A DNA stretch of 64,000 nucleotides from Cyanobacteria bacterium P01_F01_bin.150 (lineage in GTDB: Bacteria > Cyanobacteriota > Cyanobacteriia > CAKZMO01). The stretch is taken from the NCBI GenBank assembly GCA_039189765.1, contig JBCCYL010000022.1, positions 1 through 64,000 on the forward strand, in the 5' to 3' direction. This document shows, in pieces, positions 182 to 58,380 of this stretch (positions within the stretch are counted from its first letter, which is position 1; every line of letters starts with the position of its first letter). A model generated the notes under the pieces. That model was not told the DNA's origin. It was given only the letters and a program-made list of their open reading frames with translations, and searched no databases. The position numbers and the translations under genes are program-made.

Positions 182-3100
182 ATGTATTTTTCAGAAGCCA
201 TAATGCGTATAAACAAGAATAAATCACTTCATAAGAATAACTTTTATTGCATCTTTCCTGATCAAGTATGTCTAAGCATGAAATTTAATTTCAAATCTAC
301 AAGTCAGGCAGCCTATAGTTCTATGCGCAAAGTTTCATATGGCCAAAAAGTTACAGCTCAAATTTATTTCATATTTAAAGTCCTGCTGTATTTAAAGAAG
401 CAATATGAGAATGGAAACCATCCAAAAGGTTTTCTTTTACATGGGGAAAAAGGAAGTGAATTCAGTATAACAGCCAATGATTTGCGCAATCACTTGCTTA
501 ATAGTGAATATAGAAATGAATATGAAAAACATAAAGATACTAAACAAAAATATTATGATGCAGATAAAATAAGTAGTGAAAATATACGTGACAAACTCAG
601 TAAACAGTTTACAGATTTAGAAATATTAGAGCGCAAAAATAAAGATAGTAAAAAGGCAGATCTACATTATAGATTCAGGATATTTGACAAAATCGACGAT
701 AGCGCTAGCTTAGTATTAATTGAAGATTTTATACAAGAAAAGATAGCTCAAAAGAGATCAAGAAAGTTTATACAGGCAAGAGATAAGACAGAATCACCAC
801 GAAATATTCCTTTAGCATCAACATATTTTATTGGTCGAGAGAGTGAAATAGAGACCATATACACATATACAAAAAATAATATATTTATTGTCGCTATTTA
901 TGGAATGGGTGGGATAGGTAAAACAGAAGTTGCACTTCAATTTGCCAAAAAATATATTGATTATTATCCTGGTGGTTTACTATGGATTAAAGCAAGGGAA
1001 AGTGACAACGATATAAATTATATAGCAACTCAAATAGTAAATTTTTCAATACTAGAGCTAGAATTTCAGCCACCTAAATCTTCTGATATCAAAGATCAAG
1101 TTAGGTCCTGCTGGCGTAATTGGTGTAAACGGTATCCTGGCAAGAAACTAGTTATCCTTGATGATGTCACTAACTTTACAGGCTTAGTAGAACCATATTT
1201 GCCATCGGCAATGTCACAATTTCAAATCTTGATCACTACTAGAAATTTAAATATTGCAGAGTCAGAAAAATTCTCTACAGTCTCACTAGATGTATTAAAT
1301 TTAGATATCTCTGTCAAACTCATAAGAAAAATATTAAATTCAGATGATAGAAGAATTGAAAATGAACTAGATCAGATTCATAAATTGTGCAATTTTCTAG
1401 GCAATTTACCATTAGCACTAGAATTAGTTTCAAAATATATAAATAGGCGCAAAAGCCTTTCAGTAAAAAAGATAATGCAAAGACTTGTTGAGGCATCTCA
1501 ACCTCTCAAAGATAAGTCATTAATAGGAACAAGTGTTGGAATCACAAAGCAAGGTATTTCTGCAATTCTCGAGTTAAGTTGGCAAGAGTTAAGCCCTGGA
1601 GCACAGCTATTAGCAACATTACTGGCCTATTTTTCAAATGAATCAATTTATTGGGATTTAGTTGAAGATTGTTTAAATTCACAAGAAATTGAAGACTTAG
1701 AAGAGTTTCGAGATGAAGAACTAATCAATCTTAGCTTTCTCAAAGATAATGGAAATGATAGTTACAATATTCATTCTATCATTCATATGTTTTTCAACTT
1801 AAAGCTAGACATATGTCCTGAAAAAGGAATTCTTAAAGATTCATTTATTCAAGTAATGGTTAAGAATTCTCAAAGTTTCCCAAATTATCCTAGTAAGGAA
1901 GAGATTATTTCATTTTCTCAGATATCCTCTCACATAATAAATCTAGTAAATAAATTTGGTGGATGTCTAGGTGATACATCCACAGAGTTATTCTATATCA
2001 CTAAAGCTCTTGGCTCATTCTATAAATCAAAAGGATACTATAGTGAGGGAATTAATTGGCTTGATAAGTATATAAATATTTTAAATAACATATTCAAGAT
2101 AGAAAATAAGGATGACGATCATATTTTCACTTACATTGAAAATATTACTTTAGGTATATATCAAATCGCAGAGTGTCATGAAGCAAATGCATCTTACAAA
2201 GAAGCTAAAGATTACTATTACCAATTATTAAATTTATTCACTAATCAACTAGGATTGAGTTATTTTTCCGAGCCAATTATAGAAACCATCTCTAGAATTG
2301 GTTCAGTTTACAAAAATGAAGGCGATTATAATAAAGCAGAAGATTTATTTGGGCAAGCATTTAGTTACTCGCAAATGGTTATAGTAGATGGGTTGATTAA
2401 ATACTCAAATAAAAATAAAAATAAGCTAATTACTATACAAGCTTTATACAACCTAGCAGATATCTATCGACTCAAAGGACAATATGAATTGGCTGTGAAA
2501 ACTTTTAACGAGGCCCTAGAGCGTACCCAAAAAGGAGAAGGAGCCAGTAGCACAATATACATTCGAATTCTGAATCAATTAGGTCTAATAGCTCATGAGA
2601 AAAAGGCTCATGAAATGTCAGAAGAATATTTCAAAGCAGCTCTGGATTATATTCAAGATGAAAAAGTAAATGGTCATCCTGATATAGCAACAACAATGAA
2701 CAATATAGGACTATTGTATCAATCAACAGGAAATTATCAAGAGTCCGAACTATTTCATAATAAAGCCTTAGAAATTAGAAAAAAAATCTTTGGAGAAAGT
2801 CATCCTGATATTGCTCAAAGCCTTAATAACTTAGCCTCTCTGTATCGTGATAAAGGTGAATTAGATAAAGCTAAATTATTCTTTGAGATAGCTTTACAGC
2901 AATATCAAATTTTCTTTCATGAAAAACCTCATTTACTTTTAAGTTCCTATCATAGTTTAGCAGAGGTAAATTTTATGATATCGAACTATGACCAAGCTCA
3001 AAATCTCTATGAAGTATGCCTAGACATTATTAATAGCAATACAGTTTTAGATCCAACATATATTAAATTAGCACACATAAATATTCTGAAGCAATTAGGA

Positions 3101-3685
3101 GAAATGTCTGATGAACAAGAATCATATAATAAAGCAGAAAAATATTATCAATCAGCATTAGAAAATTGCCATAATTTAAACGAAGCTCAATTTCAATCTC
3201 ACAACAAAGATAAATATGAATTAACATATGAAATCACTTATCTCTTAGTAGATCTCTATGACAAGCAAGATAGAAGCGATGAATCTATTTTACTTATGGA
3301 AAATACCATCCTCTCACAAAAATCAAAATTCGGAAATAATCATATCTATGTTGCCTACAGTATTAATAAACTTGGGCTTATACATCATCAAAAATTTAAT
3401 TATGAAAAAGCAGAAGAATTATACTTTCAAGCCTTAGAAATTTATCAGAATATTTTAGTTAGTCCAAAAGAAAAAGAAGAGAAAACTATACGGATGATAT
3501 TATCATCTTTTAATAATTTAGGCTTAATTTTATTTCAAAAAGAAAAATATAATGAATCTTTTGAATTGTTAAAAGCAGCCTTAAAGATAGCTGTATCCTA
3601 TTTAGGTGAAAATCATTCAGATACTCTTTACATAATGCAACTCTTATTAACTCTAGAAGACTTATCTGGAATTTCAATAGATTAG
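182..3685 (+). CDS. STAND NTPase (NB-ARC) with C-terminal TPR repeats; bacterial NLR-like protein
   Basis: Walker A GMGGIGKT, Walker B LVILDDV, sensor ILITTR, GNLPLAL motif, then many TPRs (HPDIATTMNNIGLLY). True start may be a downstream Met (e.g. MKFNF at 278). Very AT-rich. Confidence 0.9.
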   Translation: MYFSEAIMRINKNKSLHKNNFYCIFPDQVCLSMKFNFKSTSQAAYSSMRKVSYGQKVTAQIYFIFKVLLYLKKQYENGNHPKGFLLHGEKGSEFSITANDLRNHLLNSEYRNEYEKHKDTKQKYYDADKISSENIRDKLSKQFTDLEILERKNKDSKKADLHYRFRIFDKIDDSASLVLIEDFIQEKIAQKRSRKFIQARDKTESPRNIPLASTYFIGRESEIETIYTYTKNNIFIVAIYGMGGIGKTEVALQFAKKYIDYYPGGLLWIKARESDNDINYIATQIVNFSILELEFQPPKSSDIKDQVRSCWRNWCKRYPGKKLVILDDVTNFTGLVEPYLPSAMSQFQILITTRNLNIAESEKFSTVSLDVLNLDISVKLIRKILNSDDRRIENELDQIHKLCNFLGNLPLALELVSKYINRRKSLSVKKIMQRLVEASQPLKDKSLIGTSVGITKQGISAILELSWQELSPGAQLLATLLAYFSNESIYWDLVEDCLNSQEIEDLEEFRDEELINLSFLKDNGNDSYNIHSIIHMFFNLKLDICPEKGILKDSFIQVMVKNSQSFPNYPSKEEIISFSQISSHIINLVNKFGGCLGDTSTELFYITKALGSFYKSKGYYSEGINWLDKYINILNNIFKIENKDDDHIFTYIENITLGIYQIAECHEANASYKEAKDYYYQLLNLFTNQLGLSYFSEPIIETISRIGSVYKNEGDYNKAEDLFGQAFSYSQMVIVDGLIKYSNKNKNKLITIQALYNLADIYRLKGQYELAVKTFNEALERTQKGEGASSTIYIRILNQLGLIAHEKKAHEMSEEYFKAALDYIQDEKVNGHPDIATTMNNIGLLYQSTGNYQESELFHNKALEIRKKIFGESHPDIAQSLNNLASLYRDKGELDKAKLFFEIALQQYQIFFHEKPHLLLSSYHSLAEVNFMISNYDQAQNLYEVCLDIINSNTVLDPTYIKLAHINILKQLGEMSDEQESYNKAEKYYQSALENCHNLNEAQFQSHNKDKYELTYEITYLLVDLYDKQDRSDESILLMENTILSQKSKFGNNHIYVAYSINKLGLIHHQKFNYEKAEELYFQALEIYQNILVSPKEKEEKTIRMILSSFNNLGLILFQKEKYNESFELLKAALKIAVSYLGENHSDTLYIMQLLLTLEDLSGISID

Positions 3686-3838: not shown

Positions 3839-4345
3839 TTGATCTGTAAAAAAAACGATATCGCTCCTCATTACCTGCCCAATGATGAGCGGTTTTCCAT
3901 CCTCATCACTACCCGTTTGCAATTTGGGCCTCCGGTACAAGCATTCCCCGTTGATGTGCTCCACCACCAAGCACTAGAAGGTGACTATCAGGAAGACCCG
4001 ATATGGACACTCACCGCTCGGCGAGGTTTAGAAGCAGCCTTCGACCTCACCTGGGAAACACTCAATGCACCCAGCCGCATGTTCGCTAAGATGTTAGGGC
4101 ATTTTGAACCTGGCCCCATCAACTGGCACACAGTGGACATGATGAATCAGATTTTGGCAGAGGAGTATCCCGAAGACATTGGCTATGACCCTGAAAAGAT
4201 GCGTCGCGCCAGGTCTCTTCTCATGAAATACAGTCTCCTTAAACCCTTCGATAAGAAGACCTACAGGCTCCATCCTCTAATCCGTGAATTTTTCCGAGGC
4301 AAGACTACTGACGAGGAGTATTCACGGTATGACGCAACAGCGTGA
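3839..4345 (+). pseudogene. Truncated NB-ARC C-terminal/winged-helix fragment
   Basis: Has ILITTR, AAFDLTW and YRLHPLIREF motifs homologous to the upstream NB-ARC protein, but lacks Walker A/B and the GxPLAL helical segment. GC content rises abruptly near 3770. Confidence 0.65.
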
Positions 4346-5978
4346 ACACAATCACTTCACGGCCCACAATTTAGACCGAATATTTGTCAAAACTCAAGCA
4401 CGAATCGCTACACAACTCCCCTACAATCCCACACAGCAGGAATACCAGGATATTCTCCATGACATTCCACAGATTATTCGGGCCACAAGTCATTTGGACA
4501 ACCTTACGATGGAAGGTGCTTTTATTGAACTGTTCTGGTGTCTGGGCCATTTCTATAACGGACAAGGAGATTACCCAGAAGCAGAGAAGTGGTTACACGA
4601 TGACCTCGAAAAAGCTACTGCAAGCTTTACCCTGTATCACTCGACAGTCGCACGATCCCTCAACCTGCTTGGCATTCTGCATGTGATACAGGGCCAATAT
4701 GAGGAAGCCAAACCACTGTATGAACAGGCGATTGAAATCACGCCACAGATAGTTGATGACGACGAACCCGATATCACCTCCTATCTCAATAATCTTGCAG
4801 CACTCTATTATCACCAAAGCCGATATGACGAGGCGGAGGGGCTTTATTGGGAAGCATTAGACCTCACGACCGAGTTATATGGAGAAGACGATCCAGAACG
4901 AGCTGAGATACTCAATAACTTAGCTACGCTGCTGTATGACCAAGGGCGATTTGAAGACAGTGAAATTGTGTGTCTGGAAGCCCTCGCCATGCTCGAAAAT
5001 GACGAGGAGGAGGAGGAAAACGAATATGAGATTGAACCCCTCACAGCAGAAGTCTTGGGCAATCTCGCTGCTGTCTATCGGTCACAAGGAAAGTATCAGG
5101 AAGCAGAACTTGCCTATAGTGAGGCGTTGACGCTCACCAAACTCTTATTCGGAGAACAACATCGTAGCGTCGGAGTAATGCTCAACAATCTGGGAGAGTT
5201 CTATAAAGAGCGAGGGGATTATCAACAAGCTGAAAACCACTACGCAGAAGCATTGGCGATGCATCAGACCTTATTTGGGGAACTGCACCCCCAAGTCGCC
5301 ACCAGCCTTCATGGTCTCGCTACCATCTACCGTATTCACTATCGCTACGAAGACGCTGAAGAACTGTTTCTACAGGTCTTAACTCTGAGACGACAATTAC
5401 TGGGAGACGACCATAGTGAAGTGGTGGGTACCATGATTAATCTTGCCGCTATCCAGGAAGAACAAGGCCGTTATTCTACTGCGGAGAAGCTCCTACATCA
5501 TGCATTCAACAAAGCAGAGGCTCGCTTCGGTGAAACCCATCCGCTTACCATCACCGCTATGGGGAATTTAGCCTCCCTCTACAGCCAACTTGAGCATTAC
5601 CAGAAATCACAAGAGTTGTTGTTGCGATCACTAGCTCTTGCACGACAAGTCTTCGGTGACACTCATGTCAAAGTTGCAAGGGGTCTGCGTAATACTGCCG
5701 CACTTTGCCGAGCACAAGGCAAATACGAATCGGCCATTGAACTAGGTCGAGAAGCATTAGACATGACAACTGCGCTTGTTGGAGAAGAACATCCAGAGGT
5801 TGTGCCCTGTCTCAAAAGTCTTGCCCTGAGCCATCAAAGCTACCATAACTCCATCATGGCCTGTGCTCTTCTACAGCAAGCTACTGAGATACTCAGCTCG
5901 TTTCTGGGGAGAGACCATCCTGAAACAAAAGCAAACCTCGCTTTACTGGATGAGTGGCAAAGAACAGTTCAAAAATGA
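4329..5978 (+). CDS. TPR-repeat protein (kinesin-light-chain-like TPRs)
   Basis: Repeated LNNLAxLY...QGxYxEAE units. ATG at 4329 is in frame with ORF 4284..5978 and has GAGGAG at 4313-4318. Confidence 0.85.
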   Translation: MTQQREHNHFTAHNLDRIFVKTQARIATQLPYNPTQQEYQDILHDIPQIIRATSHLDNLTMEGAFIELFWCLGHFYNGQGDYPEAEKWLHDDLEKATASFTLYHSTVARSLNLLGILHVIQGQYEEAKPLYEQAIEITPQIVDDDEPDITSYLNNLAALYYHQSRYDEAEGLYWEALDLTTELYGEDDPERAEILNNLATLLYDQGRFEDSEIVCLEALAMLENDEEEEENEYEIEPLTAEVLGNLAAVYRSQGKYQEAELAYSEALTLTKLLFGEQHRSVGVMLNNLGEFYKERGDYQQAENHYAEALAMHQTLFGELHPQVATSLHGLATIYRIHYRYEDAEELFLQVLTLRRQLLGDDHSEVVGTMINLAAIQEEQGRYSTAEKLLHHAFNKAEARFGETHPLTITAMGNLASLYSQLEHYQKSQELLLRSLALARQVFGDTHVKVARGLRNTAALCRAQGKYESAIELGREALDMTTALVGEEHPEVVPCLKSLALSHQSYHNSIMACALLQQATEILSSFLGRDHPETKANLALLDEWQRTVQK

Positions 5979-6458
5979 GATGCTACACGGCTGGCATGGC
6001 AAGCATGACATCAAATAGCGGTTCAATGAGTCTTTCACTTTTCATTAAATAGGTAGAAACAAGATTCAAGTAGTGAAATCACTACGAAAGATAAGCATCT
6101 GAAAATATTTGGTTTTTATTTTCTTATTTTGTAAGTTTTATGCATTTTTCTCTTGACATATTTTTACATGATTTTTCAGATTTACCGAGATGAATTAGAG
6201 AGTGACTCATACATGCATAAAAAGAGGATAAAAACATCAAACAAGAGAAGAGAATAGCATTTCTATAAAGCACTACTAGGTCATTTTAATTTCTTCCACA
6301 TGGGCAAATATAAGCCTAAATTTTCCTTATAAAAACTCATGATATACTAATAAAAATAATTAGATAGTAATTTCGTTATCTAATAAATTTTAAATAATAG
6401 GCTACCCCTCACGACACAAAACGAAAAGGGATAGCCTCCTTAAAAAGGAACATAAATT

Positions 6459-7046
6459 ATGACAACTGAATATGAAAAGTCAACTATTGCAGAATCCAAT
6501 ATTCAAAAACCAGAAGAAGAAAATTTTTCATTAGCTTCACATTCAGCTATTTATGCAGCAGATTTAGCAGATTATAATTCTGGAATTTTAAGAGGAATAT
6601 GGATTCCAATTTTTGAAGATAGTGATAAATATACTATTCAAGATAAAATTCATGAAATGCTAGATGAAAAAGACCATGAAGAATATGCAATTCATGACTA
6701 CAATAATATACCATCTTCAGAACTAGGAGAATATCCAGATTTAGATGATGTCATCAAAGTCGCAAAAGCCGTACATCAGCATGGATATAATTTAATTGAT
6801 CAATACATTAATTCTTTCAGCATAGAAGACTTAAAGGATTTAGAAGATAGATTTTTGGGAATTTATGAAAGTGTAGAAGATTATGCTTACGAATATATAA
6901 ATAGTTGTTATAAAATGGAAAAGATGTTGGGGAATCTTGTACATTATTTTGACTATCAATCTTATGGCAATGATTTAATTCTGGGTGGTGATATTATCAG
7001 CATAAATCTATCAATAGATGAGGTTCTCATATTATCACCATATTAG
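6459..7046 (+). CDS. ardA: Antirestriction protein ArdA (acidic DNA mimic)
   Basis: IYAADLADYNSGILRGIWI, EEYAIHDY and YFDYQSYGNDL motifs typical of ArdA; strongly acidic; AAAGGA RBS upstream. Confidence 0.88.
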   Translation: MTTEYEKSTIAESNIQKPEEENFSLASHSAIYAADLADYNSGILRGIWIPIFEDSDKYTIQDKIHEMLDEKDHEEYAIHDYNNIPSSELGEYPDLDDVIKVAKAVHQHGYNLIDQYINSFSIEDLKDLEDRFLGIYESVEDYAYEYINSCYKMEKMLGNLVHYFDYQSYGNDLILGGDIISINLSIDEVLILSPY

Positions 7047-7598: not shown

Positions 7599-7804
7599 CA
7601 TGACTCCCGCTCTCGCTCGATCCCGTTGTCGAGGACTCTGAGGTAGTCATAGCATAGTTTTTCTTCTTGCTACTTGGGTCCACTTCACTTTGCAGATAGA
7701 ATTTTCGTCATACTATAGAGATCTGTATGAGCCACAGTGGAAGCAATCAAATACTACCCCATACTAATTTATCGAATCTTCCTTATTCAATAAAAATTCA
7801 GTCA

Positions 7805-7843
7805 GAATAAAAAAAGAGTACTCACATAATGTGAATACTCTTT
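7805..7843 (-). terminator. Intrinsic terminator directly after the I-F-like unit
   Basis: Minus strand reads GAGTATTCACA-tta-TGTGAGTACTC followed by TTTTTTTATT. Confidence 0.65.
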
Positions 7844-7933
7844 CAAAAGCTGCCTGTTCGGCAGTAAAAAATTACTTATATTAATAAATAATCTTATTTG
7901 AAGCTTTTCTAAACTGCCTGTCCGGCAGTATAC
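7842..7933 (-). CRISPR. Orphan mini-array: two type I-F-like repeats flanking one 36-nt spacer
   Basis: Minus strand: GTATACTGCCGGACAGGCAGTTTAGAAA (7933-7906) and TTTTACTGCCGAACAGGCAGCTTTTGAA (7869-7842). Both resemble the I-F consensus GTTCACTGCCGTATAGGCAGCTAAGAAA with the CTGCC/GGCAG stem intact. No cas operon in the window. Confidence 0.7.
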
Positions 7934-8234
7934 ATGAATTAGATTAACTGATTTCTATTTTAGATTCAAATATTTTTTCAGGATGAATTGCTTTTTAGGT
8001 TGCATTGCTTATACTTCCTCTACTGACATTTTTTATGTTTTAAAAAATATTTTGGTTACATAAACAGTTGTTTAAGCTGCTAAATTTACCCAGTGGCTAC
8101 CCCGTCGGGTATCCTCTGGTAAGCAGTGGTAAATTACCCAGTGTTATATCCATCAATAAGTCAACATACCAAGGCACCGAAGGTGCCAGAGGCATTTCAC
8201 ACAGATGAGGTGAAAAAAGAAGGCCAGGGCAGGT

Positions 8235-9101
8235 TCAGGAAAAGGAAGACTGGTCAGCAATAGAACCATCAAGGCAATACAAATGGTCTCCCATAGCTCC
8301 TGTAGTCGGCTGATGTATAACCTCTCCTAATTCCAGTAGAGATCGCTCTAAATGAAGGGGGATAACTTGCCCAAATTCTCTCACTCGCTCGTCAAAAATA
8401 ACAATCTCACTTTCTCTGACTTCAGCGACCGGGATCTGAGATTGTTCCATAATGCCTTCTGACACTCTTAGCCTAGTCACAGTCTCCAAATGAGTCAGTG
8501 ATGGAACATTTTTACAACCAGCAGAGAGTACATTAAACACGTTGTCATTACTCTGCTCAAGGTGGTGACGAAAATCTAAGCAATATCCAAACTCATCCAA
8601 GTCCTCAATCAATTCACCTACATCTAATCTATCAAGCGGGAGAAATAGCTTAGTTCTTCGGGGATACTGCTCTCGTTCACTCGTCCCATTCAAAGGATCA
8701 CAAATAGTGATGCGTGATCGCCCTCTCTTCGCCACTTGAACAGGGGTCCACACATAAACGGTATGAACACGATAGTCTTCCCAATCAAGAGCATCCATAA
8801 CTCTTCGGCGGTAAATACAGTCAGTTGTCACAGTGGCTGGTGGTGACGGCTCACCCGAAGACTGCTCAGTAGCCTCGACCACCTGTGCTCTCGACATTTC
8901 TTTGAGTGCAGCATCAGTTATCACCCCACGTAACCATTCAATGCGCTCTTTTTGGGATTTAGACCGCACCCATGCATCAATCGACTGTGGGACTTTAACC
9001 GCTAGGGGCTGTTTGGCAAGGGGTTCATCTGGCAACTCAGAGATAGGCTTAAATTGCTTGGTCTTAAACTCAGTCGTTTGTACAGGATGGGGATTCGGCA
9101 T
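8235..9101 (-). CDS. Hypothetical protein with possible N-terminal ribbon-helix-helix-like segment
   Basis: 288-aa ORF. N-terminal PLAVKVPQSIDAWVRSK...EWLRGVI has an RHH-like strand-helix-helix pattern. Confidence 0.65.
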   Translation of the reverse strand: MPNPHPVQTTEFKTKQFKPISELPDEPLAKQPLAVKVPQSIDAWVRSKSQKERIEWLRGVITDAALKEMSRAQVVEATEQSSGEPSPPATVTTDCIYRRRVMDALDWEDYRVHTVYVWTPVQVAKRGRSRITICDPLNGTSEREQYPRRTKLFLPLDRLDVGELIEDLDEFGYCLDFRHHLEQSNDNVFNVLSAGCKNVPSLTHLETVTRLRVSEGIMEQSQIPVAEVRESEIVIFDERVREFGQVIPLHLERSLLELGEVIHQPTTGAMGDHLYCLDGSIADQSSFS

Positions 9102-9193: not shown

Positions 9194-9639
9194 TCTGATA
9201 TCAGCCATGACACGCCTTACCAAACACCGAACCACTTGCAACCCCCACCTCACGCAAGAATAAGGAAAAAATTTATTTCCAGCTTTCCCACAAGCCCAAG
9301 GCTCAAATACACGCCTCAAAATAAGTCCTTCCCTTTTGCCATCCAAGCTGTTAACATCCCAAGACTAAAAGGATTTTTATACGGTTCTATTACTACGGGG
9401 ACATAACCCGTGGGCTGTCTTGATTTTCACTCCTGCGGGTTGTTACATGTCCCCGCTTCTCATACCTCTTACCATCGGCCTTCTGCGTGAGGCACACGAT
9501 AGGTCATTACCTACTCCATGCTCGCCGATATGATGTTTGTCATTTTTATGGCCCCAAACGCCCGAAAACTCTTGATTTTTCTCAATCACTCCTGTTAGCC
9601 TTTCGCACCATACGCTGTGTGTTCATGACTTCGCTAAAC

Positions 9640-10545
9640 ATGATGGTGAATGCTATGACACGGCTACCGTATTTGAGCGACGATTACACCTTGGCTTGGG
9701 GCTTACCACCTCAAGTAAAAAAGGACAGGGTTGCTCCTGTAACGTAATCGAACTCTTAGCGTATAGTGCCTGGAGACGGGCTGGCTATATGCGAGGGAGG
9801 CTCGTTGAAGTAATCCTGCATGAATGCAGAGTAATCTCAACGTTCGATCCCATACCCAAAACTTTGGTATTTAACGGAAATTGGGCGACCGAGACATACC
9901 TTATCTCTACACAGTGAGGTAAGGCCGTATGAGTAGGAATGGTGAAACAATAATCCATCCAAGGGGGGAATAGGCTAAGTGAGTAATCATAAGCCGTTCA
10001 ACCCTTGCCAGCGTAGGGAGCTTGGGCATGGTGACATGTTCAATCGGGGGATGATAACCACCGACGACTGTACGAAATTACAGCGGTGAAAAGCTCAACT
10101 ATGAAAGGCGGGAAACCGCTTGCTGGTAAGAGTAAAGAGAGACGCAAGGCCGAACCGTTGAAAAGACCTTACGTGGTAATCCAGGAGCTTCTGCTTTCTG
10201 CCTGGGGAAATCTGCAATGAGAATGGCTTCAAGCCATCAGCGTAAGTGTCCTGCTGATAATAACCAGCTAGCGACGTGACTCTTTATTCGACTATTCATG
10301 CTAATCGGGGAAGGTCTGAGTTGGGCGAGAAGTTGCTATCCCGCCACCTGCCCTTATCAGGCAGTGAAAAAAGACATCAGACTGGGAGCGGGGAGCAAGT
10401 AGGGGCAAAGGTCTATGACCTTCGGGGGACAACTGGCAAGGCAGTCAGGAATCTCTTCGTGATCGGGGGTGGTAGCCCGATCAATTAACGACTACGAAAG
10501 CTCTGAGGAGGTCTCGAATCAAATACGGTAGCCTCCACCATGATG
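9640..10545 (+). ncRNA. Candidate giant structured non-coding RNA (~900 nt), family unassigned
   Basis: Perfect 15-bp terminal helix 9662-9676/10519-10533, nested long-range pairings, many GNRA/UUCG-capped hairpins with G-U pairs favouring the + strand. No credible ORF. Confidence 0.75.
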
Positions 10546-10831
10546 GGTTGAGGGATGCTCTATGAATCAAGAGAGTATCCCTCAACCACACACAGTACAA
10601 ACAGTGAATACTCTTTTTGCGAGGAACACCATGCCTATGAAGCACTGCACTTAGGACAGACCACATTCTCAAGACATATGCCTCAAACGGCGTTTGAGGT
10701 GAAATCAAAACACTTTTTACTAAAGCACGTAAGTAGTTGGTTTTTATGGCAATTGTTACGGCTTTAAGGAAAGTGGGTGCGCGGCGATTCTACGGTCGTA
10801 GAGGGCTACTGCGCCCCACCCGGTATTTCTG

Positions 10832-10872
10832 GCACTGGTTGACCGCAAACAAACCAGTGCTTCCTTTTTCTT
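10832..10872 (+). terminator. Terminator/attenuator-like hairpin just before the RBS of 10891..11481
   Basis: GCACTGGTT...AACCAGTGC followed by TTCCTTTTTCTT; AAGGAG at 10880-10885. Confidence 0.5.
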
Positions 10873-10890
10873 GGTCTAAAAGGAGACAAA

Positions 10891-11481
10891 ATGACAGCAT
10901 GGTATGAAGTTTCTAACGTGGGGCAATTCCTTGGACGCATAGCCAATATCTACATCTGGAACGGCTACACCCGCTATGCCGTCCGGCATATACCATCGGA
11001 TAAATCCCCTCAAGCTGTGGATACAAAAATATTGAGCTGCTATCACATCACCCAATGTCGCATGACAAGAATGCGTCATGCTGCCAGGGGTGAGGCCAAA
11101 GTAGGATATATCAGGTTTGGAAGGACGTTCATTTTAGTGGCGACAACTGGCAAGCATAAAGCTTTTGGCAGAATCCAATCACATGACTTCTACACCAGTC
11201 CCCTGCACTACTACCACTACTCAGTGGGAATTAGAAATCAAAAACCATGTATCAGAATCGCCCACAAAACGTGGAAATGGGCTGAGCATCGGATCTCAAA
11301 GATGGCACTCCACGACCACGACAAGGTGCAGCAAGCACTACAAGATCTCCCCTATTACAACTTTGTCGGCGTCCAGGAACAGAAACGACATCTGATCGCA
11401 CACATCAACGCTCGTAGAAAACGAGCGGGTCTGCCTCTCATTAGCAACCAAAATATCTTGCCCAAAGACGGGACCATGTGA
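10891..11481 (+). CDS. Basic hypothetical protein (196 aa), possible nucleic-acid-binding partner of the upstream RNA
   Basis: Strong AAGGAG RBS; rich in R, K, H and Y; C-terminal INARRKRAGL. No assignable catalytic family. Confidence 0.8.
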   Translation: MTAWYEVSNVGQFLGRIANIYIWNGYTRYAVRHIPSDKSPQAVDTKILSCYHITQCRMTRMRHAARGEAKVGYIRFGRTFILVATTGKHKAFGRIQSHDFYTSPLHYYHYSVGIRNQKPCIRIAHKTWKWAEHRISKMALHDHDKVQQALQDLPYYNFVGVQEQKRHLIAHINARRKRAGLPLISNQNILPKDGTM

Positions 11482-12050: not shown

Positions 12051-13109
12051 ATGCCTAAACAATCCTCTCTCTTCCCTGAAGACAACTACAAAACACTCCT
12101 GGGAAATCTGAAACAACGCATTGAAGAAGCCCAACTCAAAGTAGCATTGACAGCTAATCAAACTGGGGTCTATTTATACTGGCAAATCGGTCAAGAGATT
12201 TTAGCGCAGCAAAAGAAACAAGGATGGGGCAGTAAGGTAATCGACAGACTCTCCCAAGATTTGAAGCGAGCATTTCCAAACATGCGGGGATTCTCCCCCA
12301 GAAACCTCAAATATATGCGAACATTCGCAGCTGCCTATCCGAACGAGGAAATAGTGCTGCAAACGATTGCGAATGTTCCATGGGGGCACAACCAAACGTT
12401 ACTCAACAAACTGGATGATATAGAGCAACGTCTTTGGTATGCCCAACAAAGCTCAGAGTATGGTTGGAGTCGCAACGTCTTGGAAATGCAGATTGAGACT
12501 AATTTGTTCAAACGTCAGGGAGGTGCGATCACGAACTTTGAACGCACATTACCTCCAGCCAACTCTGATCTTAGTCAGCAGCTTTTGAAAGACCCGTACA
12601 ATCTGGATTTTTTCTCGCTTGCACGAAATGCTCAAGAGCGTGATTTAGAAAATGCTCTTGTGAACCATATGAAAGACTTCCTCCTAGAGCTAGGAGTTGG
12701 ATTTGCCTTTGTCGGTAGCCAGTATCGCTTAGATGTCGAAGGAGATGAGTATTTTCTTGACCTGTTGCTGTATCACCTGAAGTTGCACTGCTATGTCGTG
12801 ATTGATCTCAAAATGGCAGAATTCAAGCCAGAATACGCTGGTAAGATGAATTTCTACGTCACGGCGGTCAATCGGCTCCTTAAAGACGAGCGAGATGATC
12901 CCACCATCGGAATCGTGCTGTGTCGCTCAAAAAAGAGGACTGTCGTCGAATTCGCACTGGATACTGTACACAACCCCATCGGTGTTGCAACATACAAATT
13001 AAGAGAAGATTTACCACCAGCACTACGCAAAAGCTTACCCAGTGCAGAGCAGCTTGAGTTCGAGCTAGAAAAAGCTGCTCAAGCCCTCGAATCGGAAAAG
13101 AAGAAGTAA
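12051..13109 (+). CDS. YhcG/DUF1016 family PD-(D/E)XK nuclease
   Basis: LYWQIG, GWGSKVIDRLSQDL, GFSPRNLKYMR, KDPYNLDF, LLELGVGFAFVGSQY and IDLK...GKMNFY motifs. Confidence 0.92.
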   Translation: MPKQSSLFPEDNYKTLLGNLKQRIEEAQLKVALTANQTGVYLYWQIGQEILAQQKKQGWGSKVIDRLSQDLKRAFPNMRGFSPRNLKYMRTFAAAYPNEEIVLQTIANVPWGHNQTLLNKLDDIEQRLWYAQQSSEYGWSRNVLEMQIETNLFKRQGGAITNFERTLPPANSDLSQQLLKDPYNLDFFSLARNAQERDLENALVNHMKDFLLELGVGFAFVGSQYRLDVEGDEYFLDLLLYHLKLHCYVVIDLKMAEFKPEYAGKMNFYVTAVNRLLKDERDDPTIGIVLCRSKKRTVVEFALDTVHNPIGVATYKLREDLPPALRKSLPSAEQLEFELEKAAQALESEKKK

Positions 13110-14350: not shown

Positions 14351-15376
14351 CTATAAGTTTTTAGCAACTTTACGGCACCAAGCGAGAAAGGCTTGGTCAG
14401 GGTCTTTAATATCGAATTTATTCCTCGCTGTTGATTTCTTCCATGCATCCTCCAGAGCATAAATATCTTTACTAGGTAAATATTGCTTCGCAATTTCATA
14501 TGTGGTTGTCTTTAGCCCCTGTGGGTTCTGTAACGCTACTTCTGCTAAAGGAAAGGATTTAGTGGAAACTCGCGTAGCACTCAAATAATCGTGCCCCGAA
14601 CGTTTAGTCATTACCAATTTGTATTCAAGCAGTGCGCCCTTTGCAGCAACGTTTCTCAGCGCGGTCGAAAAATCTGAAAATCGCTGTGTACTCCCTGAGC
14701 GTTTATGGAGAGTAGAGAAATACCATCCCCAACCACGACGATTACTTCCAGCCTGTTTTCGAACAAGCCGATAGAGCCAACGTTCTATACCTCCTGTGAG
14801 AAGAAAATAATCAGGATTGATGGTGAGCAAAAGGCGCTTATCACTCACGGCTTCAAAAAGCCACTCTGGAATAACCACGGTCACATACTTAATCCTTCCA
14901 TGTTCGTCTCGTTCAAATTCTCCATACTCAAGCCAACTGAACATAACTGTTTTTTCGCGCTTGGCACGTACTGTAGTGACCACTGTTGTATTTTTTAGAC
15001 GTTTGAGAGACTGACCAAAACGTTCATATTGAATTCCCCCAATGTTACGGCGAACTGCCATAAAGAATTTATAGGGATGAAAACGGATTCTTCTGGTGGG
15101 CACTTCACCACGGTCAATAGCTTCTCGAAGCTGAGACAATAACCACATGACAAGATCCCAATCCCATATGGTGGCTATGCCATAAGGAGCACCACCTGTG
15201 ACAGTAATTTTTGCATTTTCAGATTGATATTCTATGGGCTTCAATCGGGTTCTTTTAGAAAGACTCAGAAAAGGAAGCTCCATTGTCTCCTGTGAATCAC
15301 GAGTAGAAATATCGGTGAACACATTCGAAAAAAGGCTGAGCTGCGTATTGTATTCGGGGGGATTTCTGATTGCCAT
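14351..15376 (-). CDS. repA: Plasmid replication initiator, RPA (replication initiator protein A) family
   Basis: MELPFLSLSK, YGIATIWDWDL, IPEWLF, LLTINPDYFLLTGGIERWLYRLVRK and C-terminal PDQAFLAWC; adjacent to iterons and parAB. Confidence 0.88.
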   Translation of the reverse strand: MAIRNPPEYNTQLSLFSNVFTDISTRDSQETMELPFLSLSKRTRLKPIEYQSENAKITVTGGAPYGIATIWDWDLVMWLLSQLREAIDRGEVPTRRIRFHPYKFFMAVRRNIGGIQYERFGQSLKRLKNTTVVTTVRAKREKTVMFSWLEYGEFERDEHGRIKYVTVVIPEWLFEAVSDKRLLLTINPDYFLLTGGIERWLYRLVRKQAGSNRRGWGWYFSTLHKRSGSTQRFSDFSTALRNVAAKGALLEYKLVMTKRSGHDYLSATRVSTKSFPLAEVALQNPQGLKTTTYEIAKQYLPSKDIYALEDAWKKSTARNKFDIKDPDQAFLAWCRKVAKNL

Positions 15377-18491: not shown

Positions 18492-19292
18492 TTAAGAAGA
18501 CCATAAGGTTGTCGTCTGTCTCAAGCTTTGATAGCTCCCCTTCCCTAAAATGAGATGGTCCAACAAAGGAACTCCCAAAACTTCAGCACCTTCAAGCAAC
18601 TGTCTTGTAAGAGCGATATCTTCATTACTGGGTTTAACGGAACCACTGGGATGGTTATGAGCCACAAGTATTCGAGTAGCCCCATGCTTGATTGCAGTTC
18701 GGAAGATGTCACGCGGATGAGCAAGCGTTTCGGTAGCGGTGCCGATGGTAATGACTTGCTTGCCAAGATATTGATGTTTGACATCCAATAAAACTACAGC
18801 AAAACGTTCTTGCACAGCCCACATTAAATCCTCACGAAGAACAGAAACCGCAACGTCAGGAGAATCAACAACAGTAAGGTACTTCGGAGAAGCAAGGAAT
18901 ATCTTCTTACTGAGTTCAATAGCTGCAAGCACAGCTCCAGCTCGTGCGGGACCAATCCCTGATATTTGCATCAACTCTTCCGCTGTAATGGTCCTTAAAC
19001 CCTCCCGTGCATCTTGGTCATGCTCACTGACTAAGGCAATAATTTTCCGCCCCAAGGAACGTCCATGAACATCTTTGGCCTCCCCCAAAAGGGTATCAAA
19101 AAGATAAACCAACGTTTCTACGTCCTCATTTGAAGAGAGATACCCATCAATGCCAGTGCCTGTCTGGGGTGTCGTTAAGGCGTTATAGATTCCTTCGGAG
19201 CTACGTAGCTCCGAGAGCGTTGGAAAAGTACAGGTCGATTCAAAAATTGCATTGTAGTCAGCAGGAAAAGATTGTGGGGATCTCCCAAACAT
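18492..19292 (-). CDS. radC: RadC-like JAB domain protein
   Basis: Helix-hairpin-helix ISGIGPARA, HPRDIF, JAMM motif AHNHPSG...SNED, LLDHLI. Confidence 0.92.
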   Translation of the reverse strand: MFGRSPQSFPADYNAIFESTCTFPTLSELRSSEGIYNALTTPQTGTGIDGYLSSNEDVETLVYLFDTLLGEAKDVHGRSLGRKIIALVSEHDQDAREGLRTITAEELMQISGIGPARAGAVLAAIELSKKIFLASPKYLTVVDSPDVAVSVLREDLMWAVQERFAVVLLDVKHQYLGKQVITIGTATETLAHPRDIFRTAIKHGATRILVAHNHPSGSVKPSNEDIALTRQLLEGAEVLGVPLLDHLILGKGSYQSLRQTTTLWSS

Positions 19293-36268: not shown

Positions 36269-39200
36269 CTATCTATTAATTCTAAATCCTTCAATTTCTC
36301 CCCACAATTCACATACTGAATTTATAAATACTTGAGGTGAAATTTTCTGATTTCCTTGAAGGGCTGAAAAGAAAATACCCGCAGCACCTGCTAATCTTCT
36401 AATACCCAATGGACCTACTGCAAAACTAGCAAGGGCTGTTGTTGCTAAAGGTCCAGCTAGCAACCAGCCAAGGCCAGCGCCAACTCCACCACCAAGTGCA
36501 GCTCCAGTAACAAATCCTACGGTTGCCGATACATACTCATCACCTGATTCATTAAGTTCAGGACAATCAATAGGTGCACTAATAAATCCTGCTATTAATC
36601 CTGAAAGACTAAGTACAACGGATCCTTTAATAGCGGTCGATAAAATAGAAACCTCTCCAGATGGATCAACATAAGCTATGGGGTTATTGAAGCCATAGAT
36701 ATAATCTTGCAATGATAGTGGTTGCTCATTCAAACCTTCAAATGGGTCTCTAGAGTCAAACCTCCCTGTTGCTGGATCGTAATACCTAGCTCTCAAATAG
36801 TAACTATCTAAATTCGGATCAAACTGCTCCCCTGCAAAGAGATAATCATTAGGTGTAGAGCCACTCTGATCAATCAGTTGACCAAAAGCATCGTAATTAT
36901 ATGTATCTGTCAACACTCCATTTTGATTTGTCAGAATTCGAGAACTACCAAGGCCATCAACCTGATAGAAGCTACGCTCACCACCATTCTCCTGAGAAAT
37001 TAAGTCTTGACCATGTACATAAGAAGTCTGCACATCACCGTTCAATGTGTACTCCTCGATTACTTGGGCATAGGTCTGCTGATTATTATCAATTAAGAAT
37101 CGAGTTTCCTCTCCATTGACATTCAGCGAAACACGAATTCCTTCATGGTCATATTCGTACTCAATCCGTCCAGTTTCACCATTCTCATTGATGTTGACTG
37201 CTATTAGCTCACCTTTGGCATTCCATTCATAGGTTGCCTGATTCTCACCGTTTTGGAGCTTCGCAGTAAGATTACCATCATCGTCATATCGATATTCAGT
37301 GGTCAGGTCATTAAGCATTTCTGCGAAGAGGCGATCGTTCTCGTCGTATTGATAGGTAGTAGTGCCCTCAACAGAATCAATCCGCTGCAAACGGTTACCA
37401 ACATCATCAAAGCGATACTCAATAGTTCGGGTAGTTTCTCCTGAAGGAATAATAGTTTCTTGTTCCAAACGATAGAGAACATCGTAGTCATACTGCACTA
37501 CACGACCATCAGCTTCAGTGACCTGAGTGCGATTTCCAACGGCATCCAAAAGATAATCGTAGCTAGAAAGCACTGTGCCATTACTGTCCTTGTTTTCCAA
37601 ACGCTCCAGACGATTGAGACTATCGTATTCACGAGATTCCACCACACCATTAGCAAAATCTGTCTGAATCAAATTGCCCACATCGTCATAGATATAGCGG
37701 GTTTCACCACCATCGGGATCGGTTACGGTGTCGATGCGATTGAGGGCATCGTAGGTGTAGGAGGTAGTACCAGAGGGGACAGCCAAACTTAGAATATTCC
37801 CCGCATCATCATAGGTATAGGCAATAGTGCGACCATCAGGATTCTCGCGGGAGAGGAGGCGATCGCGCTCATCGTACTCATAGTTGGTGAACCCTAGGGC
37901 ATCGGTCACAGTATCGAGTTGCCCTGTGGGAGTATAAGCAAATTGCTCCACCTCACCGTCTGGCAGCGTCGTAGTGATTAAGCGATTTCGCTCATCGTAA
38001 TCATACTCAATGGTTTCATTGTTGAAATCAGTCACCGTCTTCACATTGCCCACCGCATCGTAGGTGGTAATGCTCTCTTGACCCAACGGAAGAATCATTT
38101 TCGTCCGTTGCCCCAAGTCATCGTATTCAAAAGTAGTGACATTACCATTAGCATCTTCCTGAGTCTGGATATTGCCCAGCAAATCACGGCTATAGGTAGT
38201 TGTGTTATCCAAAGCATCGATAACTTCTATCAGTCGCCCTCGTTCATCGTATTCAAAAGTAGTAGTGTTTCCTTCCTGATCTATCGCTGCCTTGATATTA
38301 CCCAAACCATCATAGGTGGTACGACTGATAGTGCCATCGGCATAGCGCACTTCTATTTGTTGACCAATCTTGTTGTAGATAAACTCTGTAGTGCGATTTA
38401 AAGCATCAATTTCGAAACGCAGACGATTCGCTTCATCATAGATGAAGCGAGTTTCATATCCTAAAGCATCCCTTCTCAGAATAAGATTGCCTGCTTTATC
38501 GTAGTCAAAGGTAGTTCGGTGACCCAACTCATCAATTGATACAATCAAGCGACCTGCCTTGTCGTATACATTTTCAATGCGAGGATTATCGTTGGGATTG
38601 TTAGGTGTATCGTCGGGATAGAGAATAAATCGTTGGCGACCAAGAGCATCATACTCATAGCGAGTCTCTTGTCCAGCTTCATTCGTCACCGAAATTAGCT
38701 GATCAAGGGCATCATAGGTATTGGTAATGCGATCATTGTCGTCGGGATTATCAGGCGTATCGTCTGGAAAAATAGTTGCCACTAATAAGCCACGATCGTT
38801 ATAAACATACTCGGTGCGATTGCCCAGTGCATCAATATCCGCAATCTTATCGCCAAAGCCATTGTACTCAATACGGCTAACATTATTCAGAGCATCAATA
38901 CGCTCAACAACACGTCCCTCATTGTCATATCTAGTGACGAATTCATTGTTGAGAGGGTCAATCAACATTTCTGGATTACCATTGTCATCATAAGTGAATC
39001 TGTAGGTGGCTCCAGCCAGATCAGTTAGCTTTCTCAGATTGCCATAATCATCATATTCAAAGCGCGTCTCATTATTGTTGGCATCAGTGATGGATGTGAG
39101 TAGTCCAAATCCATTTTCGTCATAACCATAGAGAGTGATATGTCCCTCCGCATCCTCACGAGTTTCCAAATTCCCCTGAATATCGTAGGTATTAGTGGTG

Positions 39201-58100: not shown

Positions 58101-58380
58101 CTTAGGGGGCAAGGGAGATGATTTTTTAATTGGCGGCAAAGGTAAAGATATAATGATAGGAGGAAGCGGTAGAGATACTTTTGTCCTTAAAAGAAAACAA
58201 AAAAGAGATACGATACGCAAATTTCAATCAGAAGACTTATTACAGGTACAAGGAGTCTCATTACGAGAAATTGACATTCTCCAAAAAGGTAAAAACACTC
58301 TCATTCAAGTAAACGAAAAAGATATTGTAATTTTGAGAGGGTTTAATTCTGAAAATCTTAGCTCAACAAACTTTATATAG
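55168..58380 (+). CDS. Secreted RTX (Ca-binding) protein with permuted NlpC/P60-like domain and DUF11 repeats
   Basis: LVEEAGHFID N-domain; WDHVGF...FTCVGLVEW; two DL.IT...NxGP DUF11-like domains; many C-terminal GGxGND repeats. Confidence 0.85.
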   Translation: MTSLDPKHRDIETLNKSIALAKSLISSFLQNPESELKFTTIFGTEFSKTSLDKFKVEPIESWFPKVEILPHKVLGAKGGFSESTETIYISREFIYENANSSNNIASILVEEAGHFIDKKINVQDAQGDEGNLFALLSQNINLSPEEISVIKKEDDSTIINLNGKKVKIEKSSISDSGGFEGSQKKLSLDSEGGGEVEYSYEFFFIPDRFILRYEGENILDTGFVSGEKSGKVSVPLGKEDELEVIVSTDDEGTLWEYEISTLPTASIVFREKDDGSKDGTWGGPGDLVPGWDHVGFSFNDKVYESHPGNLPRGVSAGSFWDVRQGKFVPINNINGVQKEHTIGSFEHDSQDISKTPVIRFKEYPIDPILGEKMAKIIDPLIGVSGFQFIADISDFDLNNINKRLSPSVQKGGGGTFTCVGLVEWAAERAGHNGGEGFIPDILESIPLPNTTNVIPLLSPELLSYSLGITSSFNSVIDGITGSFNKGIEWIKSFTDQGKDFIQGFFDPVDFILTDPLGRRLGHQGNNEFKEIPGALYTGDGGIEQFLILDPIPGDYKLDLFGLNENALASVTGSSIDAILVEDFLANDTQLTEEFTVEGSNFNSTDPTSEIIDLSITRVDSSLTSVDINDIIKYDLIITNKGPGRATNVLLSDTLPEGINVIEVEASQGLAFEDDNLITANIGTLNSGDTATVTVEVNPIAAGTVIGNASVQAKQADSNITDNILIHGRTINSRTPQPADLELTQTIDNSKPFINDVVTISVSLTNQGPGIASSVKVRNLLPAGLRFIDSDPEQGIYDEATGIWDVGNIRDGLTRTLDIEVSVNAAKIPDIISEVISVNEIDPDSTPDNNLIQEDDYASLKIIPDGVGKTLIGTKRKDTLKGSPFNDKIVGLNKRDKLIGNSGDDLIRGGGGNDLIKGGSGQDKLIGNSGDDRILGGKGNDVLTGSGGNDRLVGGKGNDRLNGGTGNDRLIGDKGSDMLLGGKGDDFLIGGKGKDIMIGGSGRDTFVLKRKQKRDTIRKFQSEDLLQVQGVSLREIDILQKGKNTLIQVNEKDIVILRGFNSENLSSTNFI

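Follow-up and report, generated by a model that had tools for sequence, protein, structure and literature searches.

Positions 9662–10533 on the forward (+) strand of a 64,000-nt stretch of DNA from Cyanobacteria bacterium P01_F01_bin.150 (contig JBCCYL010000022.1, positions 1 to 64,000; hereafter the window) very probably encode a circularly permuted (CP) group II ribozyme of the T-large class. The RNA is followed on the same strand by an open reading frame (ORF) related to AcpG, and both members of the pair are considered here. The class was described by Roth, Weinberg, Vanderschuren, Murdock and Breaker (iScience 2021, PMC8637638; cited throughout from parts of its text and supplement), with members in Comamonas testosteroni, Thermus thermophilus pTT8, and Polaromonas naphthalenivorans pPNAP05. 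According to those parts, the RNAs, first named T-large, are ~900 nt long, occur on chromosomes and plasmids, and carry the group II domains (D1 to D6) in the order D5-D6-D1-D2-D3-D4; they have 5′ stem-loops P1 and P2 and no internal ORF, and acpG is often close by. The class features given there are a 5′ splice site GGGCG, as compared with GUGYG in canonical group II introns, a 3′ splice site NU, a UN bulge in D5, and a linker of <100 nt.

Relatives of the window RNA were collected at the nucleotide level. A blastn search of 72,556 plasmid records returned a single record, Calothrix sp. NIES-4101 plasmid5 (AP018278.1), in unannotated DNA, and the search repeated with the Calothrix copy as query again returned this record alone; phage records gave no blastn match. 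Eighteen nucleotides of a 23-mer invariant in the window/Calothrix alignment were then scanned against 185,579 species genomes, which produced 22 stretches. Fourteen were homologous by sequence context (the Calothrix plasmid, in two overlapping stretches; a Pleurocapsales cyanobacterium; and 11 contigs of Pirellulaceae or other planctomycete metagenome-assembled genomes), and eight were chance matches. Covariance-model searches located 14 copies in 13 of 21 loci (L003 being omitted as a duplicate of L002) and none in the eight chance loci. An alignment of the segment comprising D5, D6, the linker, and the 5′ splice site was built from 13 copies, spanning Cyanobacteria and Planctomycetota, to which the counts out of 13 below refer.

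The Calothrix plasmid (L001) carries tandem copies of the RNA at ~5560–6500 and ~7700–8640, ~2.1 kb apart, whose 5′ halves are nearly identical and whose 3′ halves differ; an acpG-like gene follows the second copy only. Both copies are overlain in the record by small ORFs annotated on the opposite strand. A canonical group II reverse transcriptase (RT)/maturase gene is located ~5 kb upstream of them.

The elements of the window RNA, all on the + strand, are the following.

9662–9676, with an outer extension at 9643–9648, + strand: 5′ arm of the terminal closing helix, in the position of the 3′ half of the domain-IV stem.
9681–9750, + strand: 5′ accessory domain, a peculiarity of CP group II RNAs; its closing helix (9681–9687/9744–9750) is conserved and covaries by eye.
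9695–9715, + strand: P2-like hairpin with loop CUUACCA, within the 5′ accessory domain.
9725–9740, + strand: second accessory hairpin, within the same domain.
9758–9792, + strand: D5, the catalytic centre, with the AGC triad at 9758–9760 and the UG bulge at 9782–9783.
9768–9772/9777–9781, + strand: upper helix of D5, with the GAGA loop at 9773–9776; homologues L018 and L020 reach the gathering score of RF00029 here.
9795–9851, + strand: D6, with the bulged branch-point A9847 (branch A invariant, 13/13).
9852–9853, + strand: 3′ splice site AU, cut after 9853 (AU invariant, 13/13).
9854–9882, + strand: linker (“exon”) of 29 nt between the reversed splice sites; a variable stretch of 15–53 nt bounded by AU and GGGCGA in 13/13.
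9883–9887, + strand: 5′ splice site GGGCG (GGGCGA in 13/13).
9883 to ~10296, + strand: D1; the 3′ border is approximate.
10008–10132, + strand: multi-helix junction core of D1 with invariant GAAAAGCUCAACUAUGAAAGG.
10130–10139/10280–10289, + strand: helix closing a D1 subdomain that holds the conserved loop GAGCUUCUGCUUUC (10192–10205), a candidate exon-binding site.
10297–10387, + strand: segment that starts with a conserved CUAAUCGGGGAA motif, common to the planctomycete copies and seen by eye in pTT8 (CUAACGGGGGAA) and pPNAP05.
10310–10386, + strand: branched domain, provisionally D2; the domain name is inferred.
10388–10510, + strand: D3-like 3′ domain (provisional name), with GGGAGCG and GAGCAAGUAGG on its 5′ side and CUACGAAAGCUC on its 3′ side.
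10460–10483, + strand: hairpin with loop GGUGGUA (10468–10474), complementary to the P2 loop UACCACC (9704–9710).
10519–10533, with an extension at 10536–10541, + strand: 3′ arm of the terminal closing helix, which marks the 3′ end of the structured RNA.

In all of the 13 aligned copies, the splice sites read GGGCGA (5′) and AU (3′) and the linker measures 15–53 nt; D6 has a bulged A at a distance of 7 nt from its end, and D5 combines a UN bulge with a loop that is either GAGA or GAAA. The D5 triad reads AGC in seven copies, CGC in four, and CGA or AGA in two. These elements agree with the published alignment, in the parts of it compared here: the D5 bulge GCUGG is identical in the two, UUCGACCC-AAU corresponds to UUCGAUCCCAU in the window, and UUGGGCGACACGGAAAC to UUGGGCGACCGAGACA. 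The D3-like motifs GGAGCAAGUAGGG and UACCGAAAGCC can also be recognised by eye in pPNAP05 and pTT8, as can counterparts of GAGCAAGUAGG and CUACGAAAGCUC.

The permuted order is the same throughout. In 13 of the 13 copies, D5-D6 precedes both D1 and the GGGCG splice site, and the window contains a single D5-D6 unit, upstream of D1; the RNA is therefore not a canonical intron. In agreement with this placement, the Rfam model of group II D5/D6 (RF00029) reached its gathering score in two of the nine homologous loci scanned (L018, 48.2 bits; L020, 40.7 bits), and both matches are on the 5′ side of the D1 motif, at ~290–470 nt from it, rather than on its 3′ side. A preliminary description of this region, made from the letters alone, had reported no signature of a group I or group II intron, RNase P, or tmRNA. 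Group I introns, RNase P, and tmRNA gave no Rfam match; for group II the statement fails, since D5, D6, and both splice sites are present in permuted order.

Covariation supports the fold in which these elements are embedded. The 25 pairs of D5 and D6 together form in 99.4% of cases, and both sides have changed at 18 of them, a result reached in none of 500 shuffles; when the partners are slid relative to each other, pairing falls to 31–45%. D5 accounts for 14 pairs (99.5% paired, both sides having changed in 10) and D6 for 11 (99.3% paired), the basal pair of D6 being seen as G-C, A-U, U-A, and C-G. For the 38 pairs of the D1 core, pairing is 97.8%, and 20 have double changes. The D5/D6 and D1-core helices covary across the 13 copies. 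Taken together, the data demonstrate for the window RNA its homology, its domain order, and the conservation and covariation of its catalytic elements. The maintenance of intact catalytic elements across two phyla argues for selection on catalysis.

The structural part of that description, a large ornate RNA on a plasmid, was confirmed: the ~870-nt structured non-coding RNA is real, large, ornate, and conserved, and it lies on the + strand of a plasmid-like replicon. The minimum free energy of the + strand is −330.6 kcal/mol, as compared with −281.3 ± 8.5 kcal/mol for 20 dinucleotide shuffles (z −5.82), making it more stable than its shuffled controls; the − strand folds less stably (−285.7 kcal/mol, z −4.56). 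We assigned the RNA to the + strand because G-U pairs are invariant at particular positions, for example in 12/13 and 13/13 copies in D5 and in 11/11 at two pairs of D1. All of the strings that had been named were found in their places. By self-comparison, GGCTACCGTATTTGA (9662–9676) is the exact reverse complement of TCAAATACGGTAGCC (10519–10533), and the helix is extended by ATGGTG (9643–9648) and CACCAT (10536–10541). This 15-nt inverted repeat is borderline by itself (blastn E 0.19, 1001-nt query against the window), and the self-comparison disclosed no second copy of the RNA region in the window. CGATTAC (9681–9687) pairs with GTAATCG (9744–9750), and GAGTAAAGAG (10130–10139) pairs with CTCTTTATTC (10280–10289) through nine Watson-Crick pairs and one G-U; both helices covary by eye in the homologue alignments. 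Local hairpins at 9768, 10022, 10106, and 10460 are likewise present. The pairing of CGAGAC (9890) with GTCTCG (10511) exists in the window but, by eye, is not consistently kept by the homologues. The longest mechanically called ORF overlapping 9640–10545 is 86 aa, with nothing larger inside this interval on either strand; the RNA has no internal ORF.

To relate the new copies to the published members, we used a covariance model of D5, D6, the linker, and the 5′ splice site, named R1, which was built from the 13 new copies alone. R1 matched P. naphthalenivorans pPNAP05 at 133–262 on the + strand (40.2 bits, E 5.5e-10), inside the published interval 33–834, and T. thermophilus pTT8 at 5777–5919 on the − strand (18.5 bits, E 0.0016), upstream of and divergent from TTHC007. 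This latter position agrees with the published placement of the pTT8 RNA, also divergent from TTHC007 (PMC8637638). A covariance model was needed since nhmmer, which uses sequence only, found just the splice-site stretch in pPNAP05 and pTT8, and weakly (E 0.0024 and 0.22).

Searches of Rfam 15 (4227 families) gave nothing in the RNA region at the gathering score, the whole window yielding one CRISPR repeat; at E ≤ 10 on 9200–11000, one chance row appeared, outside the RNA. The published CP RNAs of pPNAP05 and pTT8 also had no match in Rfam 15 at E ≤ 0.1, so the absence of a match is uninformative on novelty. The preliminary description had proposed a scan against Rfam; the scan did find no family in the region, and it is misleading as a test of novelty, the published CP RNAs being equally missed. 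Rfam 15 is without a usable model of the CP group II class, and screening based on Rfam is blind to it.

With its length of ~900 nt, its order D5-D6-linker-D1-D2-D3, its GGGCG and NU splice sites, UN bulge, and bulged A, the window RNA resembles the published CP group II RNAs as far as the parts of the paper cited here describe them. It also shares their 5′ accessory stem-loops, lack of an internal ORF, plasmid residence, and AcpG-family neighbour. Like canonical group II introns, it has the D5 triad, bulge, and GNRA loop, the D6 branch A, and the D1 scaffold, and it would share their two-step chemistry. Unlike them, it has rotated domains, which by analogy would yield a small circle and a branched RNA rather than ligated exons and a lariat. 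It also differs in having no ORF in domain IV, and its neighbour protein is about half the size, with no apparent route to retromobility.

The proposed back-splicing reaction is drawn from the published class. In a first step, the 2′-OH of the bulged A9847 would attack the 5′ splice site between U9882 and G9883; in a second, the freed 3′-OH of U9882 would attack the 3′ splice site after U9853. The expected products would be a covalently closed RNA circle of 29 nt (9854–9882) and a branched, T-shaped RNA, whose 5′ piece would be linked to the D1-D3 piece through a 2′-5′ bond. Five members of the class were tested in vitro and all were active, releasing circles of 32–86 nt, while the P. naphthalenivorans RNA gave no self-processing in vivo under the growth conditions used (PMC8637638). 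By analogy with these members, we infer that the window copy is likely transcribed and active.

Several traits set the new lineage apart. Its hosts belong to the Cyanobacteria and Planctomycetota; the main text of the 2021 paper names Deinococcus-Thermus, Firmicutes, and Proteobacteria and mentions neither of these two phyla. The lineage possesses a helix of 12–15 bp joining the two ends and an extended D6 with two AGUAAUC loops, unlike the published CP group II RNAs as presented in the parts cited. An equivalent of the terminal helix, 12–15 bp long and of unrelated sequence, occurs in eight of the 12 copies having a 3′ end; among these, L006 and L022 differ by a compensatory change. Candidates in the two Calothrix copies reach only 10 bp, and L016 and L020 are without a convincing one. 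In D6, the two AGUAAUC copies face each other as a symmetric internal loop (9809–9836) that is kept in most copies, in a place where the published supplementary alignment has a single UGAAAUC-type loop (PMC8637638). The closing helix of the 5′ accessory domain reads CGGUAAC/GUUACCG in Calothrix. The published members have P1/P2 stem-loops with CUGCCA(A) loops in the same place (supplement 1 of PMC8637638), as compared with CUUACCA in the P2 loop of the new lineage, whose candidate partner lies in a 3′ hairpin. The complementarity between the P2 loop and the loop of the 10460 hairpin, 5–7 bp, is kept in six of the seven copies in which both loops were identified, with a change of ACC/GGU to AUC/GAU, as judged by eye; a script for exact matches found little for this pseudoknot. 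Two other candidate partners of the P2 loop, UGGUAAG at 10123 (part of the junction-closing helix) and GUGGUAA at 10173, were discarded for lack of covariation by eye. A pseudoknot of the loop of hairpin 9725–9740 (UUGCUCC) with GGAGCAA (10393–10399) was also rejected, the complementary bases being in the hairpin's own stem in planctomycetes.

Not all observations favour the assignment to the CP class. No more than 13 copies, drawn from two phyla and in many cases closely related, underlie the covariation counts. RF00029 does not match the window's own D5/D6 even at E ≤ 10. A second covariance model, R2, covering the D1 junction core, found nothing in the published members at E ≤ 10 with filters on; with filters off, its best row (9.0 bits, E 0.42, pPNAP05 [L024] 365–513) was in the right place and order and not significant. 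The D1 core is thus too divergent for R2 to reach pPNAP05 and pTT8, and similarity to the published members is measured for D5-D6-linker-5′ splice site only. In the published model, the pseudoknot partner of the P2 loop is a D2 loop (PMC8637638). In the window the candidate partner lies 3′ of GAGCAAGUAGG, in a hairpin provisionally placed in D3, whereas the UGGCAG partner in pPNAP05 is 5′ of GAGCAAGUAGG. Evidence for pairing between the exon-binding site EBS1 and the intron-binding site IBS1 was no more than suggestive: a script found the complement of the last 6 nt of the linker in the loop GAGCUUC...UUC (10192–10205) in two of 10 copies (L021 and L018), inspection by eye suggested a shifted 5-bp pairing in the window and in the second Calothrix copy, and the other six of the 10 had none in that loop. 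Lastly, no promoter-like sites were found upstream of the RNA, against 3.5 expected, and the promoter/terminator scan gave nothing usable.

GOLLD, ROOL, and OLE are bacterial non-coding RNAs of large size and elaborate structure, which in some cases reside on mobile elements, and they have Rfam models. The preliminary description had viewed the window RNA as a divergent member of one of these groups or as a new class. Its size, its ornate fold, its location on a mobile element, and the absence of any Rfam family at the gathering score or at E ≤ 10 would fit such a view; the models of GOLLD, ROOL, OLE, HEARO, group I intron, RNase P, and tmRNA gave no match to the RNA (9200–11000, E ≤ 10). The defining CP group II elements are, however, all present and covarying, the conserved motifs are group II motifs unlike those of GOLLD, ROOL, and OLE, and the lack of an Rfam match carries no weight when published members are missed as well. 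With D5, D6, both splice sites, and the R1 matches to published members, the RNA falls into a class already described, which leaves the idea of a new or GOLLD/ROOL/OLE-like class with hardly any credibility. A group II intron of the ordinary, non-permuted kind without an ORF, whether whole or fragmentary, would account for D5, D6, and the D1-like elements as group II elements, and the Calothrix copies do have a canonical RT/maturase gene at ~5 kb. Against this, no second D5-D6 follows D3 in the window, and the 5′ position of D5-D6 is universal among the aligned copies; the splice sites are reversed and 15–53 nt apart, and GGGCG is the form of the CP class as opposed to the canonical GUGYG, according to the parts of the 2021 paper cited. 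We therefore hold an ordinary intron to be very improbable.

An unlikely explanation, with some observations on its side, is a CP group II RNA that has lost splicing. Such an RNA might control the acpG-like gene as a binding platform or structured 5′ leader, or it might persist as a decaying relic. RNA and ORF always share a strand and lie ~360–880 nt apart; the first Calothrix copy lacks its own ORF and is divergent in the 3′ half; and the P. naphthalenivorans RNA is reported to show no self-processing in vivo under the growth conditions used (PMC8637638). On the other hand, both splice-site motifs, like the triad, bulge, and branch A, have stayed intact across two phyla, where they are either invariant or covarying, and all five members assayed in the same paper were active, as its cited parts state. 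A CP group II ribozyme that has retained its catalytic elements remains the reading that we favour.

The ORF of the pair is as follows.

10891–11481, + strand: AcpG-like ORF of 196 aa with AAGGAG in front of it; a spacer of 357 nt separates it from the upstream RNA, which is encoded on the same strand.

Its product had no Pfam match. A search by tblastn revealed relatives that directly follow the RNA in its own orientation in Calothrix (behind the second copy), in the Pleurocapsales contig, and in seven planctomycete loci, and a profile search added a relative in L023 that is cut by the contig end. A relative was thus located downstream on the same strand in 11 of the 11 assessable loci, the window included, with three loci cut; the gap from the 3′ end of the RNA to the ORF is ~360–880 nt across loci. 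This arrangement differs from that in Thermus, where acpG is upstream of the RNA and divergent from it. A divergent ORF upstream of the window RNA (8235–9101, − strand, 288 aa), placed like the Thermus acpG, was considered and set aside, with no Pfam match and no tblastn match in the related loci. The spacer between RNA and ORF includes an imperfect inverted repeat of 42 nt (81% over 42 nt; 10546–10587) directly after the 3′ end of the RNA, and further hairpins at 10681–10699 and 10833–10859.

A k-mer protein search with the 196-aa sequence recovered two proteins only, making an exhaustive profile search necessary. Of 1.84 billion cluster representatives, 1,736 matched the profile of the ORF family at E ≤ 0.001. 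Alignment of this family with an alignment of Thermus AcpG relatives by hhalign gave 89.2% probability and E 2.2e-6 over 149 columns, while pairwise BLASTP of the ORF against the Thermus AcpG (TTHC007) was not significant alone (E 0.15). Owing to the profile-profile match, we assigned the ORF to the AcpG family.

An AlphaFold model of this protein was computed from an alignment of 88 sequences; it reached a predicted local distance difference test score (pLDDT) of 95.1 and a predicted template-modelling score (pTM) of 0.87. A Foldseek search of the PDB with this model returned RTs in all of the best 21 rows listed, with weak E-values (best 1.0e-3). The top rows were the protein chains of group II intron ribonucleoproteins (8t2r_D and 8t2s_D; E 1e-3 to 2e-3, template-modelling (TM) score by query 0.52–0.53), followed by retron, GsI-IIC, DRT2, and G2L4 RTs. 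The structure search of the ESM Atlas relies on a model and a method independent of AlphaFold and Foldseek. Its list was headed by three unnamed clusters of AcpG's own kind, after which came six group II RT/maturase clusters with TM by query of 0.65–0.68 over 184–191 of the 196 residues. A Thermus-type AcpG homologue (P0061) also resembled RT/maturases (TM 0.68 over 217 residues), and the Atlas neighbour lists of the two proteins contained Pseudomonadota clusters matching in size and phylum (246 aa, 53 members; 255 aa, 62 members). The predicted fold of AcpG is thus closest to that of group II RT/maturases, with fingers and palm and a helical thumb (X domain).

Sequence comparison lends this relationship no support. 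None of the 88 family members matched the RVT_1 or GIIM profile at E ≤ 1, and a profile search of PDB sequences with AcpG returned no RT. Alignment by hhalign to 20 group II RTs gave 4.2% probability and E 0.0098, with residues 105–172 of AcpG placed on RT residues 256–331, covering the last part of the RT domain together with the maturase X domain. The catalytic Asp triad is not conserved in the family, D44 being its only nearly invariant Asp, and AcpG is therefore probably not a polymerase. Judged from the predicted structures, we infer that AcpG may be a catalytically dead, shortened descendant of an intron-encoded RT/maturase that aids folding of the RNA. A link between AcpG and the RT/maturase fold was not found in the literature searched, subscription journals lying outside that search; the name “AcpG” has no occurrence in the available text, supplements excluded, of a 2026 article in Nucleic Acids Research (PMC13717195) and of a 2026 bioRxiv preprint.

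The position of the gene could be related to the origin of the whole unit. The cyclic rotation seen in the order of the locus, together with the RT-like predicted fold, suggests a circular permutation of an entire group II intron, its ORF included. The canonical order D1-D2-D3-D4a-ORF-D4b-D5-D6 would have been rotated to D4b-(P1/P2)-D5-D6-linker-D1-D2-D3-D4a-ORF, so that the terminal helix would be the former domain-IV stem and AcpG a reduced intron-encoded protein (IEP) of ~200 aa, kept as a maturase without polymerase catalysis that would enable the permuted ribozyme to fold and back-splice in vivo. We regard this origin as tentative, its probability falling a little short of even. It conflicts with a statement in the cited parts of the 2021 paper that ORFs of IEP type are never near CP group II RNAs (PMC8637638).

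The surroundings of the RNA fit a plasmid, as the preliminary description had proposed, with RepA, ParA, ParB, ArdA, and other genes nearby.

6459–7046: ArdA anti-restriction gene.
12051–13109, + strand: YhcG/DUF1016 PDDEXK nuclease gene, after the acpG-like ORF.
14351–15376, − strand: RepA.
Downstream of RepA, − strand: ParB and ParA.
18492–19292, − strand: RadC.
59504–60490, − strand: integrase.

A YhcG/DUF1016 nuclease, 42% identical, is also encoded in planctomycete locus L012 (1–1005, − strand), ~5 kb downstream of acpG on the same strand, which may be a coincidence. Between the ArdA gene and the RNA lies a lone CRISPR repeat (7906–7933, − strand; RF01317, 35.7 bits against a gathering score of 35). 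No second copy was found in the window even with three mismatches, and there is no array; the repeat could be a relic or a decoy for the CRISPR system of the host. Elsewhere in the window, an NB-ARC and TPR ORF of the STAND-type NTPase kind (182–3685, + strand) is followed by a TPR-rich ORF (4284–5978, + strand), with a short DUF7779-like ORF between them; the TPR-rich ORF may be a split or frameshifted gene of the NB-ARC/TPR kind. An ORF of 4,286 aa occupies 36269–49129 on the − strand. A 1,070-aa ORF (55168–58380, + strand) combines DUF11 and RTX calcium-binding repeats, and its product is probably a secreted surface protein.

The RNA is a further member of a class described in 2021, and the finding on the fold of its AcpG partner may be new. 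The results extend the CP group II class to cyanobacterial plasmids and to planctomycetes, in a lineage with traits of its own: the end-to-end closing helix, the extended D6, and a candidate loop-loop contact in a shifted position. CP group II introns are being engineered for circular RNA production (bioRxiv 10.64898/2025.12.30.696962, cited from part of its text), a field to which a natural protein cofactor and short natural circles, predicted here at 15–53 nt, would be relevant. We judge the strict pairing of RNA and gene, together with the predicted RT/maturase-like fold of AcpG, to be more useful than the RNA itself. A maturase-type partner, if true, would explain how a permuted ribozyme of 900 nt folds in vivo. 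If the whole intron was permuted, the view that no IEP-like ORF occurs near CP group II RNAs, as worded in the cited parts of the 2021 paper, would be overturned, and AcpG, hitherto without a known relative, would gain a testable function.

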